Below, piece by piece: positions 2,925 through 50,553 of a stretch of 64,000 nucleotides of DNA. The stretch comes from Fidelibacterota bacterium (GTDB taxonomy: Bacteria; Fidelibacterota; UBA2242). Made by a program: the position numbers and the translations under genes. The notes beneath the pieces are model-generated. The model was not told where the DNA came from, did no database searches, and was given only the letters and a program-made list of their open reading frames with translations. Location: positions 10,596-74,595 of the forward strand of contig JADHWC010000001.1 of assembly GCA_016783665.1 (NCBI GenBank), read 5' to 3'. Every line of letters begins with the position of its first letter. Positions within the stretch are counted from its first letter, which is position 1.

Positions 2925-3968
2925 TTGAATCACGCTGACACTGAAATAACAGTCGTCATTCCCCACTATAACGGTGAAGATCTTCTTCGGGACTGCTTTG
3001 CCTCATTATTTCGATCAACGGAACTTCCGATACGGGTAATATTGATCGATAATGCCTCCACTGATGGCAGTGTTGCTATAGTGGAGAAAGAATTTCCGTC
3101 AGTACGGATCATCAAACTGGATCGAAACCGGGGTTTTGCCGGTGGATGCAACGCCGGTATTCAGGCGGTAACGACTCCTTTCGTACTTATTTTAAATAAC
3201 GATACTATTCATGAATTCGGCTGGATTGAACGATTATTAGTGAAATTGCAATCCGATAAATCTCTGGCGGTCGTTCAGCCCAAGCTTTTATCCTACCAGG
3301 ACAGAGAATATTTTGATTATTCCGGAGCCTGTGGCGGCGAGATGGATATATTCGGTTTTCCCTTTGCCCGGGGACGGATCGTGGAGCTGGTGGAAAAAGA
3401 TGAAGGACAGTATGATCATCTTTCCGACCGCATCTTCTGGGCATCGGGAACTGCCTTTTTAGCCCGGACTGATGTAGTTAAAAAAGCGGGTTTGTTTGAT
3501 GAATCCTTTTTTGCTCATATGGAAGAACTCGATCTTCAGTGGCGGATCCAGCTGATGGGACATTCTATTGCAATTGAGCCGAACGCTGTGATCTGGCACC
3601 GTTCAGGCTTTACTCTCGGCGCTGAATCGCCTTTTAAAAAATACCTAAATCACCGCAACAGCCTGTTAATGCTTTCATCCAATTACCGTTTTTTATTGAC
3701 ACTCTATATTTTTCCCATACGGTTGTTGCTGGATTATCTGGCGCTGATGTATTCAATTATTAAATGGGACAGCGGCAGGGTCACTGCAATTATCAAAGCC
3801 CATATATGGATACTGACACATCCGGGTAAAATTTATCGGAAACGCAAACTGGCTAATTCCATTCGATCTGTTTGCGATAAAAAGATCATAGATCGTCTGT
3901 ACCACGGTTCTATTGCACTTGGGTTTTATCTGTTCGGGAAACGCCGGTTTATGGATATTTTAAAATGA
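2925..3968 (+). CDS. Family 2 glycosyltransferase
   Basis: N-terminal VVIPHYNGEDLL...LIDNASTDGS and DxD-like region, characteristic of GT2 (GT-A fold). It starts 15 nt after the upstream gene, suggesting an operon with it. Confidence 0.8.
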   Translation: MNHADTEITVVIPHYNGEDLLRDCFASLFRSTELPIRVILIDNASTDGSVAIVEKEFPSVRIIKLDRNRGFAGGCNAGIQAVTTPFVLILNNDTIHEFGWIERLLVKLQSDKSLAVVQPKLLSYQDREYFDYSGACGGEMDIFGFPFARGRIVELVEKDEGQYDHLSDRIFWASGTAFLARTDVVKKAGLFDESFFAHMEELDLQWRIQLMGHSIAIEPNAVIWHRSGFTLGAESPFKKYLNHRNSLLMLSSNYRFLLTLYIFPIRLLLDYLALMYSIIKWDSGRVTAIIKAHIWILTHPGKIYRKRKLANSIRSVCDKKIIDRLYHGSIALGFYLFGKRRFMDILK

Positions 3969-8113: not shown

Positions 8114-9559
8114 TTACAGTTCCTCCACAATCCCCCGAAACTGCTCTAACGCCGCTTCGAGGTTATCCGCTATCTCAGCCGCCAGAATATCTGGATCGGG
8201 CAGGTTTTCCATATCTTCCAGACTTTCATCTTTCAGCCAGAAGATATCCAGACTGACTTTATCTCGCTGAATCAGTCCTTCATAGGTGAAAGATTTGAAT
8301 CTCTCGGTTTCGGTACGGGCATGACGGTTTTTGGGGTTGTAGCATTTAACGAAGTCATCCAGATCGGATTTGGTCAGTGGATTTGTCTTCAGTGTGAAGT
8401 GTTTATTCGTTCGTAAATCGTAAATCCACAGCTTCTCGGTCCATGCTTTTTCACTGGCGGGTCTACGGTCGAAGAAGATCACATTCGCCTTGACGCCCTG
8501 GGCATAGAAAACACCTGTTGGCAGCCGAAGTAGTGTATGAATATCGTAATCGCTGAGCAGTTTGCGGCGAACCGTTTCACCGGCGCCACCTTCGAATAAC
8601 ACATTATCCGGTACCACAACAGCGGCACGACCATTGATCTTCAGTAATGATTTAATATGCTGGACAAAGTTCAGCTGCTTATTGGATGTAGTAGCCCAGA
8701 AGTCCTGGCGTTCGTAGGTAATTGATTCCCGTATCGCTTTGCCGTCGCCATTCACAATAGTAATACTGCTTTTCTTGCCGAATGGTGGATTGGTAAGGAC
8801 CATATCGTAACGTTCAGTACCGACCGATTCCAATGAATCCTTAACAGCAATAGGGCTTTCATCACCACCGATCCCGTGCAAATACAGATTCATGACACAA
8901 AGACGAGCGACCGAATCGGCAATTTCGATACCATAGAGCGCTTCATGACGTAGGTGTCGTTTCTGGTCTTTATCCAGTTTGTGATGATGAGAAATATAGT
9001 CATGGGCGGAAATTAAAAAGCCACCGGTACCACAAGCCGGGTCCATAATCGTTATTCCCGGCTCAGGATGCATAACCTTAACAATTGCATTGATCAATGA
9101 ACGTGGGGTAAAGTACTGACCGGCGCCACTCTTAACATCCTCAGCGTTTTTCTGTAATAATCCTTCGTAGGTTTCGCTTTTTACATCAACATCTAATCCA
9201 AGCCAGGTTTCCTCATCAATTAACCTGATTAATCGTCTTAGTTTTGCAGGATCTTGTATTTTATTTTGTGATTTGCGGAAGATAACACCGATAATACTTG
9301 GTTCCTTCCCTAGTTTTTCTAATAGGTGTCGGTAGTGGATTTCCAGTTCATCGCCGTCTTTATTCCGCAGGCTTTCCCAGTTGCATTCCGAGGGTACCCT
9401 GGATTTACGATTAAAGGGTGGCTTCGTCTGTTCGTCATCCATTTTCAGGAACATGAGATAAGTTAGTTGCTCGACATAATCACCATAACTGACACCATCA
9501 TCACGGAGCACATTGCAATAATTCCAGAGTTTTGATACTAAGGCTGCTGCATCGGTCAT
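8114..9559 (-). CDS. hsdM: Type I restriction-modification system methyltransferase subunit HsdM (N6-adenine MTase)
   Basis: 481 aa. AdoMet motif I IMDPACGTGGFL. Catalytic motif IV NPPFG (TNPPFGKK). N-terminus typical of HsdM (MTDAAALVSKLWNYCNVLRDDG). Confidence 0.9.
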   Translation of the reverse strand: MTDAAALVSKLWNYCNVLRDDGVSYGDYVEQLTYLMFLKMDDEQTKPPFNRKSRVPSECNWESLRNKDGDELEIHYRHLLEKLGKEPSIIGVIFRKSQNKIQDPAKLRRLIRLIDEETWLGLDVDVKSETYEGLLQKNAEDVKSGAGQYFTPRSLINAIVKVMHPEPGITIMDPACGTGGFLISAHDYISHHHKLDKDQKRHLRHEALYGIEIADSVARLCVMNLYLHGIGGDESPIAVKDSLESVGTERYDMVLTNPPFGKKSSITIVNGDGKAIRESITYERQDFWATTSNKQLNFVQHIKSLLKINGRAAVVVPDNVLFEGGAGETVRRKLLSDYDIHTLLRLPTGVFYAQGVKANVIFFDRRPASEKAWTEKLWIYDLRTNKHFTLKTNPLTKSDLDDFVKCYNPKNRHARTETERFKSFTYEGLIQRDKVSLDIFWLKDESLEDMENLPDPDILAAEIADNLEAALEQFRGIVEEL

Positions 9560-9561
9560 AT

Positions 9562-10368
9562 TTAATGTATTCCTATTTTGGAATTCATCACTGAAAAGAG
9601 ATTCTTATTCAGATAATCAAAGGTCTGTTTTATATCATAATCAATACCCTGACGTATCAAACCAGCAGTATCACTCCGGAAATCCGGATCTGAAATCTTA
9701 TCATGAACATTGTCAATATATTCTTCTTTTTGGATTGTTAATTCATTATGGCTAATAAATGCATCGAAAGCGTGTAATATGTTTTTCACATTGATGCTCT
9801 GATAATTCAGGCTATACCAGAGATCAAAAAGATCACGTCCCTTTTTTCGCTGAAATAATGCCCTCATTTTCGAGCCCAGTAGTTCTTCAATCGAATATGT
9901 AACCAGATTTCCCTGCCCGGTAAACCAGCGGGATTCAACTTTATAAGGCAGTGACTGGTAGCCAAATACTGTAAAATGCTCACGGCAATTGATTTCGATT
10001 TTTAAACGTAGTTGTTCTGTTGGAGGCGTTTCCGATTCAAAGCGATAGATCAGAGTAGTATTCCGCTTTTTTCGCTTACGAATCGGTTCACCGAGGTAAT
10101 GGAGCACTTCCCGAAACCGATCGATGGTCTCACCCACCGGTTCGGCGTTCATCTGAACCAGGTCAATATCTTCAGAATAGCGGGCTGCCGGTGGTAGAAA
10201 AAGCTTGTGTAAAGCAGTGCCGCCGCGAAAAGCTACTTTCTGACAGAGAATAGGGTCATTAAAAATATCAATTACCGCTCGGCTTATGATCAGGTCCTGC
10301 TCGATCATCTCTGGAGATCGCCACGGTGCGATACTGCGCCATGCATCTATAAAAGGCCGGGGAATCAT
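9562..10368 (-). CDS. abiEii: AbiEii/AbiGii-family nucleotidyltransferase toxin (DUF1814, type IV TA / abortive infection)
   Basis: 268 aa. Family hallmark FRGGTALHKLFLP...RYSEDIDLV. The ORF overlaps the upstream abiEi-like gene by 4 nt (ATGA), consistent with translational coupling. Confidence 0.7.
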   Translation of the reverse strand: MIPRPFIDAWRSIAPWRSPEMIEQDLIISRAVIDIFNDPILCQKVAFRGGTALHKLFLPPAARYSEDIDLVQMNAEPVGETIDRFREVLHYLGEPIRKRKKRNTTLIYRFESETPPTEQLRLKIEINCREHFTVFGYQSLPYKVESRWFTGQGNLVTYSIEELLGSKMRALFQRKKGRDLFDLWYSLNYQSINVKNILHAFDAFISHNELTIQKEEYIDNVHDKISDPDFRSDTAGLIRQGIDYDIKQTFDYLNKNLFSVMNSKIGIH

Positions 10369-11174
10369 AAATCCGTCTCAATTTGAGTATTCACGTTGAT
10401 CTTCCATCGGTTTCTGGATTTGCTGGAAGTTCCTTTCTTAGCGGTATGTAATAGATTATGACGTTTGATTTTGCTTTTTACAACTTCATACAATCTGTCT
10501 GCCAAAGACTGAAATTCCAATTCATATTCCATAAGATAACCGAGTCTTTGTATTACGGCAATCGGAATACTGTCGTCAATTACTTCATGGAACTTTGCCG
10601 GGTCTAAGACTTCACACAGTTCCTGGAGCATAGTTGCCACCCGGTTCATTCCACCAATGCGATTGACATAAAGTAACAGATCAATGGCAGTTAATTCCGG
10701 TGACGAGACATTGACATAACCGGTGAGGGTCTTTTTCTGGGCCAGACCAGCCGCAGGTATTTTCGATTTCACCATAAAGTTGATCTTGACTCCAGCTGCA
10801 AGTAATGGGCGCTGAACCGGTCTGACGGTAATTACATAGGATTCCTGGGGCCGCTGATGAGCTGCGCCATGCATTGCCGCCGCGCTTAAAAGCCCGACAT
10901 AATAGGGTTTCTCCAAATGATGCATTAAATCATCAATAAACTGGATGGCTGGAAGCACACCATGAGCGGAATATTCCGGCGGGATTATGATATAAAACCC
11001 TTTGTAAACCGAACGGGTGCGCCCCTTTTTCCGGAGTCGTTGCAATCCAATCTTAATGGCATTCTCTGACACCTTAAAATACGATTTCACCTCTGCTAAT
11101 GTAAAGGTATATCGTCCCTTAGACCGCAATTGGTCTATATATTTATCCAGATAATTATAACTTAAGTGTTCCAT
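10365..11174 (-). CDS. abiEi: AbiEi-family antitoxin / transcriptional regulator (N-terminal wHTH)
   Basis: 269 aa, immediately upstream of and overlapping the AbiEii gene. Basic wHTH-like N-terminus (FTLAEVKSYFKVSENAIKIGLQRLRKKGR). Length and position typical of AbiEi. Confidence 0.55.
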   Translation of the reverse strand: MEHLSYNYLDKYIDQLRSKGRYTFTLAEVKSYFKVSENAIKIGLQRLRKKGRTRSVYKGFYIIIPPEYSAHGVLPAIQFIDDLMHHLEKPYYVGLLSAAAMHGAAHQRPQESYVITVRPVQRPLLAAGVKINFMVKSKIPAAGLAQKKTLTGYVNVSSPELTAIDLLLYVNRIGGMNRVATMLQELCEVLDPAKFHEVIDDSIPIAVIQRLGYLMEYELEFQSLADRLYEVVKSKIKRHNLLHTAKKGTSSKSRNRWKINVNTQIETDL

Positions 11175-11427
11175 TTATCACCATATAACGTTTCGTTTGC
11201 GTAAAGTATCACTTTGTGACTATTATTGCAAATGAAATGTCATGTATCACAGAGAATAACAATTAAATTCACGATAACATACTCCATGTTAACGTGCGTT
11301 ACAAGTGTTAATATAAAGTGTTTTTATGCAATAGTTATCACGGAACGATAATTCCTGCAATAAATTACTCACGGAATCCATAGCCATTTATAACGCCTCG
11401 TTTGCAATACCTATAACATTGTGACCA

Positions 11428-11532
11428 TTAACGCAAACTGGACGGGACGGTTGCTTTAATGTTATATCTCTCGTCACGGAGCACGTTGCAATAGTTCCAG
11501 AGTTTCGATACTAATGTTGCTGCGTCGGTCAT
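11428..11532 (-). pseudogene. Remnant of an hsdM 5' end (first 20 codons) fused to unrelated sequence
   Basis: Nucleotides 11473-11532 are ~90% identical to 9500-9559, the true hsdM start. They would translate MTDAATLVSKLWNYCNVLRD versus MTDAAALVSKLWNYCNVLRD, followed by divergence and a stop after 34 codons. The ATG overlaps the KAP NTPase stop as ATGA. Confidence 0.6.
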
Positions 11533-13772
11533 TTAACATTTTCCTTGTTATTTTTATTTTCATCAGGATTAGTTATAGATTCTTTCTCTTTCAACATTGC
11601 TTTATAAAATGCCGCAAACTGAAAGGCGACTTTTTTATTATCATCAATATCTTGTGCTCCATAAAGCCAAGCCTTTTCAGCCTTGTCGAGTTTGTCTCCA
11701 TATATGGATTTCAGCTGTGTAAATAAAACTTGTGGATCGATTAATTTAATTATTTTATCGAATGTCTCTCTTCGAAAACTTACCTTGCCAGTCGTTCTAT
11801 TATTTAAATCATCAATAGTCGTAAGAAAAATCGATAAAAATATGACTACATTGTAATGATCCTTACTAAACGTTGAATGTAAATAGCGGGTAAGTTCTTC
11901 TTTGTCGCCCCAATTGTACCAGTACCAAATTAGTTCTTCTGCTTCTTTTCCATATTCAATATAAAATATTTTCGAACCAGAGATAGTTATTATTCTTGAT
12001 AACAATAGTGCATTTAACTCTTTTATCTGCTTATCTGACAACAAGGATTTATCCGGTTTACTTTTATCATCATTCGTGAGCTCATAAAAGCACTTAAGAG
12101 AATATGTTACAGGTTCACTTTTTTCTATAATATCTATAATGGTCGAATAAAATGCATCTTCGGTTTTAGCATTTAATAATAAATCGTGAATTAATGATGA
12201 TGCTAAATATTGTGGTGAGCGTAAAAAAGCAGATTCGCTTGAAGTTGGTAAAAGATCACCAATCTCTGACAGTGCTTTTGATAATTTCAATGAATTGTTG
12301 TTTTGCACCTTATCTTTATACGGCATGAGTTTAAAAAGTACTTTATTAACATTCTTTTTATCTACTATGAAACGTAGTTCTTTGACAATATCTTCTACTT
12401 CTAATTTAGGAATACTTGTTATAAAATTCTCTATAGTAGTATCTGATACATCATCTTTAGGAACAGAGTAACTAAAGTATCTCTGAAAATAATCTTTGGA
12501 TGCGATCCGTTTTTCCTTATACCATTCTTCACTCGCTGGATTTGAAATATCCATCTCTGAAAGAATGCTAGGTATTTGCGGAAATAGAAATGTGATTAAT
12601 GATTTGGCAGATGCATTTTCAATCTCATTGTATGATATTAATGCTTCATCAATTGTATTTTGAGCATTCTTCCTTAATTCTTGTGTTGATTCTAAAAATC
12701 CTCGCGTTCCAAGAAATAAGTTCGAATTATTCCTAATAGAATCATATAATTGAGGATAGAATACACGAATTGCTTCAATTAACAATAAATCTACAAGGTT
12801 CACTTCCCCCTTTAACACAGTAGCAGCAAAACGAATCACGTTTGCATATCTTTTACATAAACGGGGGGTAGTAATTCTCACAGAAAGATCATTTATAACA
12901 ATCTGCCAATAGGGCTGTAACATTTGTCGATTAAATGTAACATTTGAATCATATAAAGCATTATTCACTTCTAATTCAAAGAATTCTAATAGAGTAAACC
13001 TTGGAATTTGAGGCGCTTTAATAGGTATTTGTACAATCTTTTCTAAAAAACTATAACCAGCTTTTATATCGTCCTTATTATTACCGTATTTCTCTGTTAG
13101 TGCTGAAGCGACCATTCTATCATCAAATGCAAGAATATATATTAAATTATCGAATCCTGCTGTTAATTTAACTAACTTAAAAACTGCATGTATCTCATCC
13201 TTGTCGAGCCTGTCAATGTCATCCATAAAAATTACTACGCACTTCTTATTATCTCTAAGGATCCCTTCAAACTTCGTCTTTAAAGTGTCTGGATTATTGC
13301 CAGACATCATCCTACCAACCTTAGTAAGTGTTCCTCCAACGGGAATCGATACACCTGGCCCACTTATATCTAAAGGTAAAATGACTTCCGCGTATTTCTC
13401 AAGAATTTCACCAATCTTTTCTTTCCCCCCTAATTTAATATTTAATGTTTCCCTTAATACTGAGAAGAACATCATAATGAGTTGTTTGTCATCTTCAAAT
13501 CTCCAAGGATTGAATTTTATTGGAATAATAAATTCAGTCTCATTCAATGCGTATTCAATTAAATTTAGTATAGATGTTTTACCATCACCCCATGGTCCTA
13601 ATATACTTATGACCATATTACTGGTATCTTTTCTATTAATTATTGTTTGTGCTATCTTCTGTGCAAATGGCCAGCGATTGAATTTATCTTGTTTTGGGGT
13701 TTGAATTGGTAAATCGGATACATATTCAATTGGTTGAGTTATATTATCATCTTCCATAGAGTTAACCTGCAT
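11529..13772 (-). CDS. KAP-family P-loop NTPase
   Basis: 747 aa. Walker A ILGPWGDGKTS. Walker B hhhhDDIDR (VVIFMDDIDRL). Long helical C-terminal region typical of KAP NTPases. Markedly lower GC than the flanking hsdM and hsdR. Confidence 0.8.
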   Translation of the reverse strand: MQVNSMEDDNITQPIEYVSDLPIQTPKQDKFNRWPFAQKIAQTIINRKDTSNMVISILGPWGDGKTSILNLIEYALNETEFIIPIKFNPWRFEDDKQLIMMFFSVLRETLNIKLGGKEKIGEILEKYAEVILPLDISGPGVSIPVGGTLTKVGRMMSGNNPDTLKTKFEGILRDNKKCVVIFMDDIDRLDKDEIHAVFKLVKLTAGFDNLIYILAFDDRMVASALTEKYGNNKDDIKAGYSFLEKIVQIPIKAPQIPRFTLLEFFELEVNNALYDSNVTFNRQMLQPYWQIVINDLSVRITTPRLCKRYANVIRFAATVLKGEVNLVDLLLIEAIRVFYPQLYDSIRNNSNLFLGTRGFLESTQELRKNAQNTIDEALISYNEIENASAKSLITFLFPQIPSILSEMDISNPASEEWYKEKRIASKDYFQRYFSYSVPKDDVSDTTIENFITSIPKLEVEDIVKELRFIVDKKNVNKVLFKLMPYKDKVQNNNSLKLSKALSEIGDLLPTSSESAFLRSPQYLASSLIHDLLLNAKTEDAFYSTIIDIIEKSEPVTYSLKCFYELTNDDKSKPDKSLLSDKQIKELNALLLSRIITISGSKIFYIEYGKEAEELIWYWYNWGDKEELTRYLHSTFSKDHYNVVIFLSIFLTTIDDLNNRTTGKVSFRRETFDKIIKLIDPQVLFTQLKSIYGDKLDKAEKAWLYGAQDIDDNKKVAFQFAAFYKAMLKEKESITNPDENKNNKENVK

Positions 13773-15501
13773 TTAATTTGTTTATATGTTTTTTCCTCTC
13801 CAGCAACTCACTGGCAGGTTCACCTGCCTGCCGCGTCCGTCCGGCGGCTATCTCTCGCTTTAACCATTTGCGCCCAAAGCCGGTCTTTAAATCCTTTTCT
13901 CGTTTAACTGCTGCTTCACGTGTATTGAATTCTTCCCAATGAACAAGTTTAACCGGTGGATAATGTTTAGTCCAATCAGCACCTTTTCCTTGTATATGTT
14001 CTATCCAACGCTTCTCAATATCATTGGTCTGTCCGATATAGTGACTACCATTGGAACATTCGAATACATAAACGAACAAGCGATCAGGCCGCGGCGCAGG
14101 CAGGTCATTTGGATCCTGCGGCACCAACTTCCCCTCAAAGGCCCGCTTCAGGATAGACTGACGCAGGGATTGGGAACGCTTGAGTTCAGCGTAGATGATT
14201 TGTTCCGATTCATCAATTATTGAAAATAGTCTGTCTAATTCTTTAAGTATTACGTTTTGTTCATCAATTGGCAATAACGGTACAGGAATAGATTTTAGAT
14301 CCTTTACTCCTTTCACGTTAGGAATTGCTGAACCAGTGGAATTTGCAAATATTCTATTTTGGAAATACGGTGATCTAAATAATTGGATAAAAAAAGAATC
14401 ATTATATATATTTCTATTTATTCGTACTCTTAATAGAGCTTGATTTATTATTCCTTCTTGAAAATCATTAGGAATTTGAGTTATTCTACCCAAAGACACA
14501 CCAGAACAACTTATTAAAAAGTCACCTGCTCTTACAGCAAATGCTTTCATTTCTTGATATTTCATTTCATCAATGAAATAACGAGTAAAAGAACAATCAT
14601 CGTTTATTGGACAATATTGTTCATATACTTTATAGCCAGATTTTACAAACATTGATTTCTTTAAAGAGCTACCGAATGGTCCTCTTTTAAATGCTCCTTC
14701 ATCATTTGATAAAATATCTTCCCAAGTAGCCCACACCCACCCCTCAGGCAATTCCGGCAGATTGGAAGTATCAATTGGCTTGGGCGGCTTGTACTTCTTG
14801 CCCAGGCGCTGTTTGCGCTCTGCCTGAATCCGTTCCAGGAGTGCGGATGCCGGCTCAATCTGGTTTGCGTTTTCCCGTCTCCATTCTTCCGTGAGTTTGC
14901 CTTCCACAGCGGCCTTGAGAACTGATTGACGGTACTGCTTCAACAGGGCTTTGGCTCTCTGCAGGGCGTCAATACCGGCGTCAAATTTGGTGAAGAGTTC
15001 CTCGATCTTAGCAACGATGCGCTGCTGTTCGGGGAAGGGGGAAAGGGGAATTTCGAAATTGCCGAGTTCCCTTGTACTGATATTAGGTTGTGCAGCACCA
15101 TATGCATTTTTCAGAATGTCTCTTCTAATAATTGCTAAATAATGGTAAATATAGTCTTGAGTCACATATTTTTGATCTAATACTCGTAACCGACCAACAC
15201 GTTGATTGAGTAAGGATACCCTGTCAATTCGATATTTACCATATTTACCAGTTGTTGCACCTGAAAGAGCAATAACAATGTCATTTGGTTTTAATATAAA
15301 TTCTGGATAGGAATCAACATTTGTCTCATCCAAGTACACTGTTTTTTCATCGAAACTTACACACTCATTTTCTATGTTTGAGATTCGAAGCAATGGAATA
15401 CCAGATGATTTATAGTCCTTACTTTTAAAAGCATAACCACCACGAATTTCGCATATTTGATCAAAAGGTATTTGAGTCCAGTTGTTAGGTAATCTACTCA
15501 T
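13762..15501 (-). CDS. hsdS: Type I R-M specificity subunit HsdS with C-terminal YhbQ-like GIY-YIG nuclease domain (fusion)
   Basis: 579 aa. Two target-recognition domains separated by the conserved central helix (LFTKFDAGIDALQRAKALLKQYRQSVLKAAVEGKLT) and a distal conserved helix (LDRLFSIIDESEQIIYAELKRSQSLRQSILKRAFEGKLV). Residues ~474-545 (nt ~13867-14082) read FVYVFECSNGSHYIGQTNDIEKRWIEHIQGKGADWTKHYPPVKLVHWEEFNTREAAVKREKDLK, a GIY-YIG/URI domain of the YhbQ (COG2827) type. Confidence 0.85.
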   Translation of the reverse strand: MSRLPNNWTQIPFDQICEIRGGYAFKSKDYKSSGIPLLRISNIENECVSFDEKTVYLDETNVDSYPEFILKPNDIVIALSGATTGKYGKYRIDRVSLLNQRVGRLRVLDQKYVTQDYIYHYLAIIRRDILKNAYGAAQPNISTRELGNFEIPLSPFPEQQRIVAKIEELFTKFDAGIDALQRAKALLKQYRQSVLKAAVEGKLTEEWRRENANQIEPASALLERIQAERKQRLGKKYKPPKPIDTSNLPELPEGWVWATWEDILSNDEGAFKRGPFGSSLKKSMFVKSGYKVYEQYCPINDDCSFTRYFIDEMKYQEMKAFAVRAGDFLISCSGVSLGRITQIPNDFQEGIINQALLRVRINRNIYNDSFFIQLFRSPYFQNRIFANSTGSAIPNVKGVKDLKSIPVPLLPIDEQNVILKELDRLFSIIDESEQIIYAELKRSQSLRQSILKRAFEGKLVPQDPNDLPAPRPDRLFVYVFECSNGSHYIGQTNDIEKRWIEHIQGKGADWTKHYPPVKLVHWEEFNTREAAVKREKDLKTGFGRKWLKREIAAGRTRQAGEPASELLERKKHINKLNAG

Positions 15502-15520
15502 GCTGTCAGCGCCTCATTCA

Positions 15521-16669
15521 TCAGGCACAATTCCGTATTTCTTCCAGGTAGTTCTCAGCATAGTATTGATCCGGTATTGATTGTGAAACTATATCTTTTA
15601 GTCTGTTTAAGTAACTGGGAGACAAAAGATCATTATGCTGGAGGATACCAACGATGATCCCCGGATGGAGATGCAAATACTCAGCAGTATCATATATCAA
15701 TCTCTGCTGAATATAGCCAGTCTTCAATTCAAAGATGTCTATTATTGCCTTTGATTTTAGTAATTCAGATGCGAACTCGTTGGCTTCCTGTTCTGTCGTG
15801 CCTGCCTGGTTTCTCTCTTCCACGTTATCAATAAAGAAATCCTCCGCGGTATTCAGATGTCGCAGGACATGGGCGATTTCATGAGCAATTGTGAACCAAA
15901 AGTTGTCGTTACGATCATAGCGTTTAGTATATACGATGACAGGGTTTTCGCCGTCGAGAAATGAAGCGCCATCGGTATAGGTTTTTTGCAGATGACTGAG
16001 GACAAAGAATTTGACGCCGCATTGTTCAAGAGCACCGGTAAATGCCGCGATTCCATCATCCCGAACCGTATATGTGTGAATTTGTGAAGCCAGCAGTTTC
16101 AGGGCAGGTTTATCGTATTCCGACGATTCATATATTTTGGCGCTGCGCTGTGCCATTCGATACCAACATAGTGCATAATTGTTGTTAAAACGGCCATATG
16201 CTGAGGATTTACGAAATTGAGGTAAAAGTTTGTCATTGAAGAAATCAAAGGACAAATCCTGTGTATTCCAGAATCGCTGAACCTCTTTTACGAATTGTTC
16301 AAGATTGCTTCGTGCGCAAATCCAGTCCTTTTTAACCATCTCCTGAATCGGCATATACTTATAAATGTTGGCTTTCAGTTCAACCATAGCTTCTTTTTGC
16401 GATTCTTCTTGTAATTGGAGTCTGTACATCGAATCCAGATTCAGCCAGTACTGCGGAGATTGTCCAAAGGTTTTACTAAGCAGACGAGCGGTTTCCGGGG
16501 TAATGGATTGTTTGTTTTTAATAATCATGTTAATAGATTTGATATTCATGCCCAGAATATCAGCCAAATCTTCCTGGCGCCAACCCCGTTCATCTAACTC
16601 TTCCCGGATGAATTCGCCGGGACCAATGTTAATAAAAGGTTGCAGAGTATTGACCATTTTAATCACCAT
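15521..16669 (-). CDS. higA: HigA-like antitoxin: XRE-family HTH fused to ImmA/IrrE (COG2856) zinc metallopeptidase domain
   Basis: 382 aa. N-terminal HTH (EDLADILGMNIKSINMIIKNKQSITPETARLLSKTFG). HEXXH motif FTIAHEIAHVLRH plus downstream EQEANEFASELL, typical of ImmA/IrrE. Overlaps the upstream small toxin-like ORF by 11 nt. Confidence 0.75.
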   Translation of the reverse strand: MVIKMVNTLQPFINIGPGEFIREELDERGWRQEDLADILGMNIKSINMIIKNKQSITPETARLLSKTFGQSPQYWLNLDSMYRLQLQEESQKEAMVELKANIYKYMPIQEMVKKDWICARSNLEQFVKEVQRFWNTQDLSFDFFNDKLLPQFRKSSAYGRFNNNYALCWYRMAQRSAKIYESSEYDKPALKLLASQIHTYTVRDDGIAAFTGALEQCGVKFFVLSHLQKTYTDGASFLDGENPVIVYTKRYDRNDNFWFTIAHEIAHVLRHLNTAEDFFIDNVEERNQAGTTEQEANEFASELLKSKAIIDIFELKTGYIQQRLIYDTAEYLHLHPGIIVGILQHNDLLSPSYLNRLKDIVSQSIPDQYYAENYLEEIRNCA

Positions 16670-16970
16670 AATGCTTGGATATTTCTAATAGCGTTACTTT
16701 TTTGAAGATTTTATCTTTTACTTCCCATTCAACATCAAATTCGAGCCGCCACTGTTTATTAAGTCTGACCGAATAGCGGTTTTTAAATCCTTCGAGACGT
16801 TCAAAGTGCAGGGATTTTGAATTCCAAAGATCGTAAATTGTGTCAGAAGCCTCAAGCGACCTAACGCGCATCAAGAACTTTCTCTTGATTTCTTCTGTTA
16901 GTCTTGGCCTACGACATTTTCTTGATGTGTATAAATTTAATAGGTTTTTGTTCCCAAATTCGATATTCAA
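16659..16970 (-). CDS. higB: HigB/RelE-superfamily toxin-like protein (killer protein)
   Basis: 103 aa. C-terminal pattern LEGFKNRYSVRLNKQWRLEFDVEW...KVTLLEISKHY resembles HigB (…GxxxGxWSxRxNxxWRxxF…DYH). Directly upstream of the HTH-ImmA gene in the toxin-first order typical of higBA. Confidence 0.6.
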   Translation of the reverse strand: MNIEFGNKNLLNLYTSRKCRRPRLTEEIKRKFLMRVRSLEASDTIYDLWNSKSLHFERLEGFKNRYSVRLNKQWRLEFDVEWEVKDKIFKKVTLLEISKHYGD

Positions 16971-17017
16971 AAAGTACCTATAGTATATACGTTATTCGTA
17001 ACATTCGCAAGTTAATT

Positions 17018-17034
17018 ATTACGCCATACGTAAT
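17018..17034. promoter_or_regulatory. Inverted repeat ATTACG-N5-CGTAAT upstream of higB-like gene (candidate operator)
   Basis: Perfect 6-bp inverted repeat arms in the 79-nt gap between the hsdR stop and the higB-like start. A second small TACG-N5-CGTA repeat lies at 16988-17000. Confidence 0.25.
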
Positions 17035-17049
17035 ATTGTTAATCAGTAT

Positions 17050-19812
17050 TTAAGAAGTCAACACCCTGTTTAATTCATCTAAAATAGTGCTGAACTGTTC
17101 TCCAAATACTTGATACGCTTTCATCAAGCCGCCGCGATCATAAAAGGGCACGTTGTCAAAGTCATCTACTTCGATCTCCACGCTGGTGGCAATGTGGTCT
17201 TTGATCATCTTCAGCCATTCCAGCTGTTCCGGGCTGAAGTCGTTGCCTGCTTTACGCTGATTTTCCAGCCAGTTCTCAAAGCGCTGATCGATACTCTGAT
17301 AGAAGGGCGTCAACTGCTCCTCTTTACCCAAACCGTAGCGAATCAATGAAATCAGATCGGTGAGCAGTTTATCCGGTCCCCGCCGCCGTACCCGGTCCTT
17401 ATCCAGCTGCTCAAATGCAAACCAGACCCGGTCGGTATTCAAGTTGTAGGGCGGGTTCTCCATCCGTTTTGCCAGTTCTTTGATCATCTCGTAAGTCAGA
17501 TGACGTTTATCATAAGGTTGATTGTAGATGATCTGAAGCGCCGTGATCTCATCCTGATTGGCTTGCATGAATTCCCGGAAGGATTTGATGAGGACATTAG
17601 CCTTCTTTTTAGCATCACTGTCATAGCCGGCGGATACAACATTATCTATACTGACAGTATCAATGGTTTGTTCATTGCGCTGCTTTAGTTCAATGAGTTT
17701 ATTCCTGAACTTCGGATCGTCAAATACTTCGCAGGCATCCCTGGTAAGTTCGTCCGCAGCCTGTTTTATCTGTTCCCCGGAAGGTGAATCTGTCTGAAAT
17801 AGCGTTTTTGCTTTTTCTGTTTGAATATCAGGATCCACGGCATCCAGTAATTGATTGCTTATAGCGGTTAATAATTTACCGCCGGAAACGTCTTCCAATT
17901 CCTTTTGCTGCTCTTTATCTAATTGCAGGTTCAGGCGTGACAGGCGTCCGGCAAGCGATTTAATTGTATCTTCATCCCGTGCGCCAAAGGCGATCTGCTG
18001 GATCAGTTTATTAAATGGAACTGTGCGTTTGCGCTCCAGCGGTTTGGAATCAATTTTCACCGATTCCGTAACACCAACTGCATCTACTACAATAAAATGG
18101 GTTTTATCACGAGTATCCGGAGTTACTGCCACAAGGTCGGTACTGGAAATGACTCTTGTACCGCGCCCGATCATCTGTTCAAAGTACAGCCTGGATTTGA
18201 TATTCCGCATGAATAGCAGACATTCCAGGGGTTTAATATCCGTTCCGGTGGAGATCATATCCACAGTTACGGCAATACGAGGATTATAGGAGTTCCGGAA
18301 ACTGGCAATCAGGTTTTCCGGCGTGTCGCCAGTGGTCTTGTAAGTGATCTTCTTGCAGAAGTCATTACCTTTATCGAATTCCTGCCGGGTTATCTGAACG
18401 ATATTCTCGGCGTGAGCATCATCTTTAGCAAAGATGAGGGTCTTGGGAACTTCCGTTCTGCCGGGGAATATCTCAGTGTACAGTTTATCACGGAAAGTGC
18501 GGATGACCGTACGTATCTGATCGACAGAGACTACTTCCCGGTCTAATTGCTTTTCGGTATAGACAATGTCCTCATCCAGTTGTTCCCAGCGCTTTTCCCG
18601 TGTGTACCGGTCTTGCTTCGCAACCCAGAAACCGGCGTCGATTTTACTGCCCTGCTCTGTAATCTGAGTTTGAATACGATATACTTCAAAACCGACATTC
18701 ACCCGGTCGGCAACCGCCCGCTCATGGTTATATTCCATGACCAGGTTTTTATTGAAGAATCCAAAAGTCTGCTTGGAGGGTGTAGCCGTCAATCCAATGA
18801 TAAAAGCATCAAAATATTCCAGCACCTGTCGCCATTGGTTATAAATCGACCGGTGACATTCATCAGTGATGATGAAATCAAAGGTTTCTATCGGGATTTG
18901 CGGATTGTAAACGACTTCTTTTGGTGGAATAGTTTCGTCAGTAACATCGTACAGGGAAAGTTCTTCCAAGTCGTCTTCAATGGGTTCGCCTCTGAGCATA
19001 CTGTAAAGGCGCTGAATTGTTGTAATACAGACTTTATTGACCGGATCAATTACGTTAGATGAAAGCAACTGAACATTATATAATTCAGTGAATTTCCGTC
19101 CGTCGTCAGGAGTGATATATTGAGCAAACTCACCGCGAGTCTGGCGTCCCAGAGTTTTACGATCCACCAGAAAAAGGATGCGTTTCGCCCTGGCAAATTT
19201 GATCAGGCGATAGACAAACGATACCGCTGTAAAGGTCTTACCACTGCCGGTAGCCATCTGGATTAGTGCCCGTGGACGCGCATTCCGGAAAGAGTGGTCA
19301 AGGTTAGCTATCGCTTCCACCTGGCATTGACGGAGTCTGTTGGTCAGTAGCGGTGGTAATTGCCGTAAGCGCTTCCTGAGTGTGACAGACTCATTCAGAT
19401 ACTCCTGAAGCGTTTCCGGTCGGTGAAAATTGAATACGCGCCGGGATCGTGGACTGGGATCACGTTCATCGGTAAAATATGTCTCAATACCCGTACTTTC
19501 ATAAGTGAATGGTAACGGTGATTGAACATGTGGTATTTTGTCCGGGAAGTTGTGACCGTATTTTATCGATTGCTCATGAACGCCACTGAGTGTGGTGCCT
19601 TCCGGCTTGGCTTCAACAACACCGGCACCTTGACGGTCTATGAATAATACATAATCAGCAGGACCGGCATTAGTCGGGAACTCCCGAACGGCAACGCCTA
19701 ACCCGACACCGAGATTAATAGCTTTAACGTCCTGTATAATCCATCCTGATTGAGTTAACAGTTGATCGATATGTTGGCGCGCCAGTTCTTCAGGCGTCAT
19801 TTTTGGTTGCAC
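17050..19812 (-). CDS. hsdR: Type I restriction enzyme R subunit HsdR (SF2 helicase/translocase + nuclease)
   Basis: 920 aa. Walker A MATGSGKTFTAV. DEAH box ITDECHRS. HsdR-type N-terminal domain and C-terminal helical domain. Confidence 0.9.
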   Translation of the reverse strand: MQPKMTPEELARQHIDQLLTQSGWIIQDVKAINLGVGLGVAVREFPTNAGPADYVLFIDRQGAGVVEAKPEGTTLSGVHEQSIKYGHNFPDKIPHVQSPLPFTYESTGIETYFTDERDPSPRSRRVFNFHRPETLQEYLNESVTLRKRLRQLPPLLTNRLRQCQVEAIANLDHSFRNARPRALIQMATGSGKTFTAVSFVYRLIKFARAKRILFLVDRKTLGRQTRGEFAQYITPDDGRKFTELYNVQLLSSNVIDPVNKVCITTIQRLYSMLRGEPIEDDLEELSLYDVTDETIPPKEVVYNPQIPIETFDFIITDECHRSIYNQWRQVLEYFDAFIIGLTATPSKQTFGFFNKNLVMEYNHERAVADRVNVGFEVYRIQTQITEQGSKIDAGFWVAKQDRYTREKRWEQLDEDIVYTEKQLDREVVSVDQIRTVIRTFRDKLYTEIFPGRTEVPKTLIFAKDDAHAENIVQITRQEFDKGNDFCKKITYKTTGDTPENLIASFRNSYNPRIAVTVDMISTGTDIKPLECLLFMRNIKSRLYFEQMIGRGTRVISSTDLVAVTPDTRDKTHFIVVDAVGVTESVKIDSKPLERKRTVPFNKLIQQIAFGARDEDTIKSLAGRLSRLNLQLDKEQQKELEDVSGGKLLTAISNQLLDAVDPDIQTEKAKTLFQTDSPSGEQIKQAADELTRDACEVFDDPKFRNKLIELKQRNEQTIDTVSIDNVVSAGYDSDAKKKANVLIKSFREFMQANQDEITALQIIYNQPYDKRHLTYEMIKELAKRMENPPYNLNTDRVWFAFEQLDKDRVRRRGPDKLLTDLISLIRYGLGKEEQLTPFYQSIDQRFENWLENQRKAGNDFSPEQLEWLKMIKDHIATSVEIEVDDFDNVPFYDRGGLMKAYQVFGEQFSTILDELNRVLTS

Positions 19813-49026: not shown

Positions 49027-50553
49027 ATGAAATACGGATTGAGATTACCGCAATACTCTTTATTAATGTCTGTTTTTGGAGTAATACTGTTTTTCAGTTG
49101 TAGCGAGAAGGAAGATCAAATACCTGACGAAAAAATTCTTGCCAGAATCGGGAATAAAACTATCGCGGTCAATGAATTTATACGCCGGGCTGAACACACT
49201 ATCCGACCAGCTTATTGCAAACAGGATAATTATATTCATAAAAAGATCATTTTGAATTCCCTGATCGCGGAAAAACTTTTTGCGCTGGAAGCGGGCTTGG
49301 ATAATGAATTAGTTAAGAATGAAGAGTTCCGGAATTATATCCGGGGCAGGCAGGAACAGGCTATGCGCCAGTACTTTTACTACGACAGAGCCTATAATAA
49401 AGTCGAACCCGATACCGCCGAGATTAAAAGAGTTTATAAACTTGCCGGAAGAATCTACAGGATTCAGTATCTGCGTCTGCCCGATGAGAATTCCGTATCT
49501 GCCTTTATGAAACTTCATAGAGAGGGTGGAATACCGTTCGATTCATTGGCGATGGATATTTTAGGCGATTCAACCATACCGGAGCGTCAAATCAATTTTA
49601 ACGATGATCTGAGCAACGAGTTTTTCGATCTTTTTTATTCGAAGCCCCTGGAAAAGGATCAATTGATTGGTCCGGTTAAAAATGAAGATGACAGCTTTTT
49701 GATAATGAAAGTCGCCGGCTGGAAGACCCGGGTCGTCATTAGCGATAAAGAAATTAAACAACGGTGGAATGATGTCCGCGATAAATTAAAAAATATTGCA
49801 GCAAACCAGCTGTATAATCAACAAGTCTCCGAACTGATGAAAGGGAAAAGATTAAAATTTACCGAAGATACATTCTATCAACTTACGGATATTCTGGCGC
49901 CGCTATACATGAAAAACATACAGGATAAAAAAGAGGCATTCAACCAGAAGTTCTGGAAAAAAGAGGTGGAGGTTGATTTTGACACCACCTATGACCAGAG
50001 CATTGAATCACTTCGGCACAAACCGTTATTTACGCTGGATGGAATTGTGTGGACTGTCGCTGATTTTGAAAAAGCCTTACAGTCCCATCCGCTGGTTTTT
50101 CGCAAGCGTCAATTCAGCAGTAAGGAATTTCCCGAGCAATTTAAGTATGCCGTTGCGGACCTGGTTCGGGATATCCAGATCAACCGGGAAGCCTACAAGG
50201 TGGGTTATAATAATGTTCCCGTTGTTAAAAATTATGCCAACATGTGGCATGATGATCTGGTGTCTATGCACTGGCGAAATGAATACCTTAAACGAGCTGG
50301 GTTTCAGGGCAATTTCGGAGATAATTATATGGAAGCGATTGAAGATTATCTGAATCCTTATGTGGATAGTCTTCAACAAAAATATAGTGATCTTATAGAA
50401 ATTAACACCGATGCTTTTGAAAAAATTGATCTTACTAATATTGATATGTTTGCAATTCAGAGAAATGTGCCTTATCCGATTGTCAGTCCGAGTTTTCCCA
50501 TTTTAACAACGGATAATAAGTTGGATTATGGTAGAAAAATGATTATTGAATAA
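49027..50553 (+). CDS. Hypothetical lipoprotein (possible SurA-N-like chaperone region)
   Basis: 508 aa. Lipobox-like LFFSCS. ILARIGNKTIAVNEFIRRAE resembles SurA/PpiD N-terminal chaperone segments. No catalytic motif found. Confidence 0.4.
   Translation: MKYGLRLPQYSLLMSVFGVILFFSCSEKEDQIPDEKILARIGNKTIAVNEFIRRAEHTIRPAYCKQDNYIHKKIILNSLIAEKLFALEAGLDNELVKNEEFRNYIRGRQEQAMRQYFYYDRAYNKVEPDTAEIKRVYKLAGRIYRIQYLRLPDENSVSAFMKLHREGGIPFDSLAMDILGDSTIPERQINFNDDLSNEFFDLFYSKPLEKDQLIGPVKNEDDSFLIMKVAGWKTRVVISDKEIKQRWNDVRDKLKNIAANQLYNQQVSELMKGKRLKFTEDTFYQLTDILAPLYMKNIQDKKEAFNQKFWKKEVEVDFDTTYDQSIESLRHKPLFTLDGIVWTVADFEKALQSHPLVFRKRQFSSKEFPEQFKYAVADLVRDIQINREAYKVGYNNVPVVKNYANMWHDDLVSMHWRNEYLKRAGFQGNFGDNYMEAIEDYLNPYVDSLQQKYSDLIEINTDAFEKIDLTNIDMFAIQRNVPYPIVSPSFPILTTDNKLDYGRKMIIE

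Follow-up and report, generated by a model that had tools for sequence, protein, structure and literature searches.

What is a nuclease domain doing in the specificity subunit of a type I restriction-modification (R-M) system? The question is raised by a 64,000-nucleotide stretch of a Fidelibacterota genome (GenBank assembly GCA_016783665.1, contig JADHWC010000001.1, positions 10,596 to 74,595; hereafter, the window), in which an hsdS open reading frame (ORF; 13762..15501, minus strand) encodes a protein of 579 amino acids (aa) that contains a GIY-YIG domain. The preliminary description of this locus, which gave the ORF exactly as we find it, considered both a catalytic HsdS fusion and a selfish insertion. 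The latter is strongly supported by the inverted-repeat ends of the inserted piece, its in-frame presence in dozens of unrelated hosts and its absence from the closest HsdS homologues. We estimate at roughly 0.8 the probability that what appears as a GIY-YIG 'domain' of HsdS represents a single copy of a selfish DNA element, which is compact (282 bp) and has GC-rich terminal inverted repeats. The element in the window is a discrete unit that recurs in unrelated genes, with both its ends and its protein under selection. It carries no promoter, start codon or stop codon, the host frame running through both repeats and the 94-residue YhbQ/UPF0213-type nuclease, and it is located in the dispensable C-terminal tail; in other respects, this type I hsdS is ordinary. 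The nuclease would then serve the element and not the restriction system; HsdS very probably still works, and restriction is very probably still performed by HsdR.

The element spans 282 nt, or 94 codons (13823..14104, minus strand), and its frame is continuous with hsdS on both sides. It starts with CCTGCCTGCGCCGCGG and ends with CGCGGCAGGCAGG, and the inverted repeats (CCTGCCTGCGCCGCG.../...CGCGGCAGGCAGG), which comprise a perfect 10-nt pair and an 8/9-nt pair, are located exactly at its ends. The 5' repeat (CCTGCCTGCGCCGCGGCCTG; 14085..14104, minus strand; GC content 0.85) is translated as (D)LPAPRP and the 3' repeat (...GGACGGACGCGGCAGGCAGG; 13823..13842, minus strand; GC content 0.80) as GRTRQAG, yielding the end peptides LPAPRP and RTRQAG. 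Directly 5' of the element, the host dinucleotide GA (14105..14106, minus strand) forms the codon of Asp466 together with the first C of the element; at the opposite end, the base at 13822 is the host-derived third base of the Gly560 codon, from which the native HsdS tail continues (EPASELLERKKHINKLNAG; 13765..13822, minus strand). The insertion is in frame, between D466 and E561 of the normal tail, and abuts the second conserved (coiled-coil) region of HsdS (14107..14271, minus strand), which, as judged from homologue comparison and from helix 412-454 of the structural model, extends to the insertion point (...SILKRAFEGKLVPQDPN). When the 282 nt are removed, the junction reads cca aat ga|t gaa cct and encodes the canonical HsdS tail ...PNDEPAS...; no target-site duplication is present at the hsdS insertion.

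The closest HsdS homologues, which lack the module, read ...QDPND|EPxSxLLER..., with precisely these 94 aa missing. The motif ...SILKRAFEGKLVPQDPND is common to the window protein and its homologues; the empty homologue P0123 (60% identical) continues as ...SILKRAFEGKLVPQDPND|EPVSVLLERIKHVNKLNVG, compared to ...SILKRAFEGKLVPQDPND[94 aa]EPASELLERKKHINKLNAG in the window. The module is present in only 13 of the 120 best HsdS homologues, always at the hsdS-tail site or at another site in a conserved region. Thus, the piece described previously as a C-terminal fusion of about 75 aa is 94 aa long and is inserted within the HsdS tail, the residues that follow it being HsdS's own, as the comparison with P0123 demonstrates. 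The compositional mosaic reported at the same time is real in part: the TRDs (target recognition domains) are AT-rich (GC content 0.32-0.34, compared to 0.56 in the conserved region), which is ordinary for hsdS, whereas the supposedly GC-rich tail is the 3' repeat of the element, the true HsdS tail having a GC content of 0.39 and the interior of the element 0.41, equal to the window mean. The window contains this single copy of the element and no other. An isolated 9-mer, CCTGCCTGC, at 49346-49354 lies within another ORF, with no element or hairpin around it, and was taken as a chance match.

Apart from the insertion, HsdS is a complete two-TRD type I specificity subunit. The Pfam domain Methylase_S matches in two stretches (E-value 5.7e-28), the PADLOC profile Specificity_I matches with an E-value of 6e-104, and the AlphaFold model, built with 25 homologues (predicted local distance difference test score, pLDDT, 88.6), aligns over about 470 columns with the full-length solved HsdS subunits 1YF2, 2Y7C and 5YBB. 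The model also contains the two long conserved helices, one central (156-200) and one C-terminal (412-454), in agreement with the architecture proposed earlier. The module forms a separate unit in this model, with the order strand, strand, helix, helix, strand, helix, helix; the strands at 475-482, 487-492 and 516-525, together with the helices, make up the three-stranded GIY-YIG fold.

The identification of the nuclease, including the 'YhbQ-like' label, is borne out as well. The GIY-YIG profile PF01541 matches residues 476-542 of HsdS with an E-value of 1.2e-15 and 58 bits, compared to a cut-off of 22.6 bits. In this core (13876..14076, minus strand), the catalytic Y, Y, R, H and E are intact; in the alignment of copies (A1), Y13, Y23, R33, H37 and E70 are invariant, and the window copy has all of them. 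Among the solved structures, the best sequence matches are the UPF0213 proteins 1ZG2 (E-value 9.2e-15) and 1YWL (E-value 5.9e-14), and a Foldseek search matches the module with the same two structures and with Slx1. The GIY-YIG fold accounts for all 94 aa of the element. The UPF0213/YhbQ proteins (BH0048, 1ZG2, and EF2693, 1YWL), members of a prokaryotic Slx1-like GIY-YIG cluster, share with the element the fold and the Y, Y, R, H, E pattern as well as the lack of the C-terminal Asn that is typical of homing endonucleases. However, UPF0213 proteins are encoded by free-standing genes of about 95-107 aa, whereas the element is embedded in other proteins and possesses, in addition, a conserved KTGFGRKWLKRE helix and the repeat-encoded linkers.

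The same unit is found in numerous genes that have nothing in common with hsdS. A search with the HsdS C-terminus detected modules 55-77% identical within proteins of unrelated Pfam domains, namely, Ogt, NUDIX, MsrB, RibD_C, PduO-type adenosyltransferase, Pterin-4a, Dus, Fic_N, and the N-terminal and C-terminal domains of HsdR. Measured from Leu to Gly, the unit comprises exactly 94 aa in about 45 proteins that belong to unrelated families, and the host sequence resumes after it; two RibD_C paralogues contain the module at differing positions, each representing the empty site of the other. The model of Ogt, in which the module lies beside the PCHRV active site, is confident (pLDDT 86.8), and its pre-insertion part alone superposes on solved alkyltransferases at 1.2-2.6 Å; the host fold and the module fold are both recognisable in the HsdS and Ogt models. 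Scanning one genome per species yielded 119 loci, in Aminicenantes, Desulfobacterota, Verrucomicrobiota, Planctomycetota, Nitrospirota, Acidobacteriota, Bacteroidota, Bipolaricaulota, many Patescibacteria and other phyla, and all 62 full-length genomic copies, from more than 10 phyla, are in frame within long ORFs. The hosts were identified by removing the element computationally and comparing the remainder with Pfam. They include UvrB, ArgRS, LeuRS, AlaRS, DnaG, TrmD, RecO, HsdR, HsdM, DUF1156 and Eco57I-type methylases, a Type ISP enzyme, SNF2/NOV_C helicases, PD-(D/E)XK nucleases, HPPK, and radical-SAM and AMP-binding enzymes. Furthermore, a search of 1.84 billion representative proteins returned 73 clusters at E-values of 1e-30 or below and 429 at 1e-10 or below; nearly all of the best 150 clusters carry the whole 95-residue query internally.

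The in-frame character of the insertions does not depend on a search for coding sequences. We scanned metagenomes for the two repeats spaced 245-275 nt apart, without requiring coding capacity, and read 80 loci among at least 120 matches. The length of the element is divisible by 3 in 79 of the 80 loci (279, 282, 285, 288, 291, 294, 297, 300 or 303 nt), and in 78 it is open throughout and continuous in frame with the host ORFs to either side, the remaining two being apparently decayed. The repeat pattern had no match in viral contigs, so that there is no evidence of phage carriage of the element. The length variants other than 282 nt (279, 285, 288, 291, 294, 297, 300 and 303 nt), seen in metagenome loci L085-L164, are bounded by the same outer repeats; those of 297-300 nt are found repeatedly at the HsdM site ...HVPD|AWID... 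and in Eco57I-type methylases. Two copies can reside at different sites of one gene, as in one hsdS (L055; 288 and 282 nt), and three proteins (P0241, P0255 and P0261) show two matched stretches each. In P0243-P0248, P0258 and similar proteins of about 610-630 aa, the module is found at about residues 220-330; judging by sequence position, this mid-protein site possibly corresponds to the central conserved region of HsdS (compare L055 and P0055), which would make it a second hot spot, homologous to that in the C-tail.

The flanks of the copies show a preference for GA|YGR (G 81%, A 73% | Y 81%, G 69%, R 82%). Read in phase, this target specifies the codon pairs Asp-Gly, Asp-Asp or Asp-Glu, which are typical of surface turns, and it agrees with the junctions seen in the hosts: PCHRVIRSD|GTIGGY in Ogt, GHVFDD|GP in MsrB, QDPND|EPAS in HsdS, and ...ED|GEPFEEKM and ...HVPD|AWID in HsdM. 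No target duplication was detected in the flanks of the copies, and removal of exactly one unit restores the canonical motif lengths in the hosts. The nearest neighbours of an element often reside in different host genes (PduO and another host, 0.77; Dus and HsdS, 0.74; a methylase and a helicase, 0.78), and the copies in HsdS tails cluster together. This pattern of sequence similarity suggests jumps between genes combined with spread or inheritance within a gene family.

The analysis of synonymous variation indicates that the termini of the element are constrained as nucleotides and its core as protein. The entropy at third codon positions is 0.15-0.9 bits in the outer ~13 nt of each end, compared to 1.58 bits in the interior; the peptide KTGFGRKWLKRE, which is as conserved as the end peptides, has a synonymous entropy of 1.33 bits. 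Synonymous differences within the interior have reached saturation (median pS 0.86), and pN is 0.30. Moreover, the two ends can pair, columns 1-9 of the alignment with 274-282 and columns 12-20 with 265-273. Across 46 distinct copies, 85.4% of the stem cells pair, compared to 29-49% when the partner is slid; double-sided changes account for 34 cells, compared to 11.1 +/- 2.8 in shuffles, a value that none of the 500 shuffles reached, and compensatory substitutions were detected in eight stem pairs. Because RNAalifold returned no structure for the full 282-nt alignment, the stem was defined by pair-frequency scanning. When the window element is folded as single-stranded DNA (ssDNA), the terminal stem closes the molecule in both the minimum-energy and the centroid structures (z = -2.7). 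One lineage, present in hsdS of Desulfobacterales (L003, L004, L005 and L007) and also in L002, L041, L055 and L060, begins with TTTACCTGC... and ends with ...ACAAGGCAGGCAGG. In this lineage, synonymous changes (CTG to TTA; ACG CGG to ACA AGG) weaken the stem, and the LPAP... and ...RTRQAG peptides are kept; such copies may be immobilised or domesticated.

The stem also occurs without the nuclease. Solo hairpins (CCTGYCTGCGTGC-loop-GCACGCAGRCAGG) share the stem sequence of the element and lie in frame in coding sequences of related loci. All 25 are 27 or 30 nt long, again divisible by 3, with arms 4-6 nt apart, and 22 are located inside long ORFs, where they encode peptides such as TCLRATHRQ and PVCVQRTGR. 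A filled and an empty site can be compared in the same region of HsdR: L054 and L073 (3422-3448) read VVFEKS[TCLRATHRQ]E..., and L048 reads VVFEKSKKED. These hairpins look like non-autonomous derivatives of the element that resemble Rickettsia palindromic elements (RPE). In L035 (3270-3296), a solo hairpin lies within the 3' repeat of a full element (...GGTCG[CCTGCCTGTGCGTAGCACGCAGACAGG]GGCGCGGCAGG...), indicating that elements target each other's ends. The HsdS homologue P0125, which lacks the module, has the C-terminus ...QDPTDLPAAELL... and, further on, ...EAPVCQQAGRR..., which resembles a solo-hairpin peptide; the ...QDPTDLPAAELL... stretch is either a candidate footprint of an excised element or a plain substitution. 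In addition, a related GIY-YIG module, about 60-65% identical, is inserted in frame in the N-terminal region of Bacteroidales-type HsdR (L043, L048, L053, L054, L061-L066 and L073; ~2940-3300), in the context ...SRFMAW[PVCVQRTGR...GIY-YIG...]...LETLINGML.... Here, a complete hairpin precedes the nuclease and the standard 3' repeat is absent; in L054 and L073, complete hairpins flank the nuclease, which is itself in frame in HsdR. Tangfeifania diversioriginum DSM 27063 (L064), one of the carriers, is in culture and could serve as an experimental handle.

In the window, hsdS belongs to a type I R-M operon within which a defence island is nested (8114-19812, minus strand). The order is hsdR (17050..19812), a HigB-like toxin (16659-16970), a helix-turn-helix protein with an M78 peptidase domain (15521-16669; PD-Lambda-2_B match, E-value 1e-44), hsdS, a KAP NTPase (11529-13772; PifA match, E-value 3e-78), AbiEi/AbiEii (9562-11174) and hsdM (8114..9559), all on the minus strand. 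The hsdR and hsdM genes are parts of the same type I system as hsdS and share its strand, with the other defence genes in between, and hsdR is intact, with HSDR_N, ResIII/SNF2, Helicase_C and EcoEI_R_C domains. The PifA-like KAP NTPase ORF lies downstream of hsdS, and between its first in-frame ATG and the hsdS stop codon there is an overlap of 11 nt (13762-13772); public gene calls place the start of that ORF 5 codons further in. No tRNA gene adjoins the island in the window.

Among characterised systems, the Ssn family (CDD cd10448) is the best functional analogue, by likeness of description. SsnA of Neisseria meningitidis is a 94-aa single-domain GIY-YIG nuclease that cuts only ssDNA, a few nucleotides from the hairpin repeat NTS, and accepts a hairpin built of two half-oligonucleotides (PMC11893778). 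Its gene is typically flanked by NTS repeats, an arrangement described as 'identical to IS' (Chenal et al. 2025, PMC11893778), and many solo copies of the repeat exist, which are intergenic, with 2% inside genes (PMC11893778). The element resembles this system in its 94-aa single-domain GIY-YIG protein and the solo repeats, and possibly in a cognate hairpin-forming repeat at both flanks, given that its terminal half-hairpins can pair with each other and that complete hairpins flank the related copies L054 and L073. It differs in that each flank holds half a hairpin, with the gene in the loop, whereas the Ssn gene lies between hairpins, and in that the repeats are translated and the unit is in frame in host genes without expression signals of its own, whereas NTS is intergenic; the repeat sequences are unrelated. 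The Ssn paper makes no mention of in-frame or fused copies (PMC11893778). An insertion of this kind was, however, encountered in 2006, when a GIY-YIG domain was reported at about residue 800 of the Methylococcus capsulatus HsdR MCA0838, absent from an 80%-identical homologue, and the authors remarked on its 'extraordinary evolutionary mobility' (Dunin-Horkawicz et al., PMC1564403). It was presented as a single curiosity, and inverted repeats, unit length, target site, host range and solo hairpins were not described (PMC1564403). Comparison with P0013 and L016, which have insertions in the EcoEI_R_C region, suggests that this Slx1-like insertion is very probably a copy of the same element.

Selfish DNA that is inserted in frame and translated has precedents of other kinds. 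RPE, reportedly described by Ogata et al. in 2000, are said to be palindromic selfish DNA located in frame in protein genes, translated, and tolerated on protein surfaces. They are reportedly 100-150 bp long, non-autonomous and Rickettsia-specific, with the mobilising enzyme unknown since 2000. Palindromic ends and in-frame translation within host proteins are common to RPE and the element, and the 27/30-nt solo hairpins behave likewise; unlike RPE, the element encodes its own nuclease and is spread over many phyla, the likeness being one of description. Inteins with homing endonucleases are comparable as in-frame selfish insertions at conserved motifs of replication, repair and translation genes that encode a nuclease and keep the frame, but the element has no HINT domain or junction nucleophile, has inverted-repeat DNA ends, and uses a short degenerate target instead of a long homing site. 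The IS200/IS605 and REP/RAYT systems combine hairpin-dependent recognition of ssDNA with a short specific motif, lack of target-site duplication and solo palindromic repeats. They rely on HUH/Y1 transposases with covalent intermediates and on subterminal hairpins at each end, and they disrupt or avoid genes, in which they are not translated. The element shares the lack of duplication, the short motif and the solo palindromes, and differs by its GIY-YIG enzyme and its translation within genes (these systems are also discussed in PMC11893778). With classical insertion sequences and miniature inverted-repeat transposable elements it has terminal inverted repeats in common, but it makes no target-site duplication, and its only product is a GIY-YIG nuclease, not a DDE, HUH or serine/tyrosine transposase. 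The element thus combines traits of Ssn/NTS hairpin-nuclease units, in-frame palindromes such as RPE, and intein-like in-frame parasitism. In a search that left most subscription journals outside, no earlier account emerged of the unit, of its inverted repeats, or of the in-frame rule, the target, the host range or the solo hairpins.

By analogy with Ssn/NTS, the end repeats of the element would pair on ssDNA to form a hairpin with the nuclease gene in its loop, and the nuclease would recognise the hairpin of its own ends and cut ssDNA at the hairpin base. Such cutting could allow excision, transfer or recombination-mediated spread into new GA|YGR sites, with insertion completed either by host ligation or repair or by recombination during transformation or conjugation, via conserved flanks. 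Selection would leave only in-frame insertions, divisible by 3, in tolerant loops, and the LPAPRP and RTRQAG peptides would double as linkers. The notion of a hairpin with a nuclease in the loop derives from the solo hairpins that share the stem, the complete hairpins that flank Bacteroidales copies and the hairpin within a repeat in L035. Because the length is divisible by 3 and the frame is open, ribosomes would read through the element, and the 94 aa would remain part of the host protein, which would tolerate the inserted domain. An active nuclease tethered in this way might have side effects or might be exapted in some lineages, and the HsdS fusion protein may possess nuclease activity that is incidental or was exapted secondarily. 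We give even odds to the broader proposition that this is an undescribed class of autonomous mobile element, which could be denoted a 'coding hairpin element': devoid of expression signals, restricted to in-frame insertions, and encoding an ssDNA nuclease in the loop of its own hairpin. Under this proposition, the 27/30-nt solo hairpins would be non-autonomous derivatives, and the element would be the autonomous counterpart of RPE-type palindromes and a natural generator of nuclease-domain fusions in R-M and repair proteins.

Several observations weigh against a mobile element that moves in this manner. No mobility event was seen, no copies more than 90% identical occupy different sites in the data set, and no near-identical empty allele of the window hsdS was found, the closest empty homologue being 62% identical. 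GIY-YIG enzymes are hydrolytic, so that insertion must rely on host functions, and the likeness to Ssn is descriptive, the closest solved relatives being UPF0213 proteins. Furthermore, co-variation of the ends would be expected as well with a single protein that recognises each of them as duplex DNA, and among the stem mismatches G.T and A.C are about equally frequent (45 and 42), which provides no evidence for an RNA-specific structure, for a folding strand or for any folding. The lack of a G.T bias and the conserved, co-varying repeats would fit a classical duplex-DNA transposon equally well, one that moves by cut-and-paste after its own protein, or one of the host, has bound the repeats in double-stranded form, with no hairpin or single-stranded intermediate. 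We consider such a transposon doubtful. It is at odds with the absence of target-site duplications and with the lack of a separate DNA-binding domain in the 94-aa protein, and we know of no GIY-YIG transposase. Solo hairpins with arms 4-6 nt apart that share the stem and are also in frame would not be expected either, and the analogue that is closest among characterised enzymes is active on ssDNA hairpins alone (PMC11893778).

Another set of observations would be compatible with recruitment of the module for additional R-M catalysis, whether nicking at or near the recognition site, restriction independent of HsdR, or ssDNA restriction of incoming DNA, and its retention for defence. Copies in R-M genes amount to 50-58%, and to 63-78% when defence helicases and DNA-repair genes are added, a bias that may be due to function as well as to tolerance or horizontal transfer; the catalytic residues are invariant and the protein evolves under purifying selection; SsnA itself is an ssDNA restriction factor during transformation (PMC11893778); and the retention of end peptides in L003-L005 while the repeats erode hints, at the sequence level, at protein-level value or domestication. 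Nevertheless, the element is also found in ArgRS, LeuRS, AlaRS, TrmD, MsrB, HPPK, RibD_C, PduO and Pterin-4a; it is sporadic in HsdS, where the closest homologues are empty, and occupies many differing positions in HsdS, HsdM and HsdR; the operon has an intact hsdR; and a protein domain does not need ends that co-vary and are constrained as nucleotides. A restriction role for the module is not supported, and we deem recruitment unlikely, including the nicking or HsdR-independent HsdS that the preliminary description offered as a reason for the domain. Removal of the element from the mature host protein, as an intein, intron or translational-bypass element, would explain its location beside active-site motifs of essential genes: like inteins, the insertions adjoin conserved motifs of essential or single-copy genes (Ogt PCHRVIRSD|G, MsrB GHVFDD|G, tRNA synthetases, DnaG, UvrB), and the terminal stem brings the two junctions together. 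However, all 94 aa belong to the GIY-YIG fold, with no HINT blocks, and the first residue is Leu, followed past the element by a varied +1 residue (G, E, D, K, Q, A, H, Y and others), which excludes classical protein splicing for want of a splicing nucleophile. Known ribozymes are excluded as well, there being no relevant Rfam match at E-values up to 10; the interior synonymous sites vary freely, so that there is no ribozyme core, and no G.U bias is apparent. Lengths divisible by 3 and open frames in nearly all loci of the repeat-only scan are expected only if ribosomes read through both junctions, and we accordingly regard removal as highly improbable. Finally, the joining of hsdS to a separate small GIY-YIG gene by a frameshift, mis-assembly or chimeric contig, the circumstance that the preliminary description saw as fatal to its reading, is refuted: five metagenomic contigs, assembled independently from different runs, and one NCBI record all encode the identical 579-aa product, the frame is continuous, and HsdS's own tail resumes past the element.

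If the GIY-YIG module is indeed a selfish element, the hundreds of 'X-GIY-YIG fusion' proteins (HsdS, HsdM, HsdR, methylases, Ogt and tRNA synthetases) should not be read as designed bifunctional enzymes, and 'guilt by association' fails for them. The element would exemplify a minimal parasitic strategy in which transcription and the start and stop of translation are borrowed from the host, and each end has two uses, one as a recognition site in DNA and one as a peptide linker. Because the target consists of surface-turn codon pairs, the element can reside even in single-copy essential genes of reduced genomes. The finding also connects the Ssn hairpin nucleases with palindromic elements that lie in frame, for which the mobilising enzyme has reportedly been missing since 2000. 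In practical terms, the family is a source of many natural pairs of enzyme and hairpin from which ssDNA tools could be made, and its insertion sites form a natural map of where well-studied enzymes tolerate insertions. For the evolution of defence systems, such elements would provide a ready route for nuclease domains into defence proteins, where later exaptation is possible.

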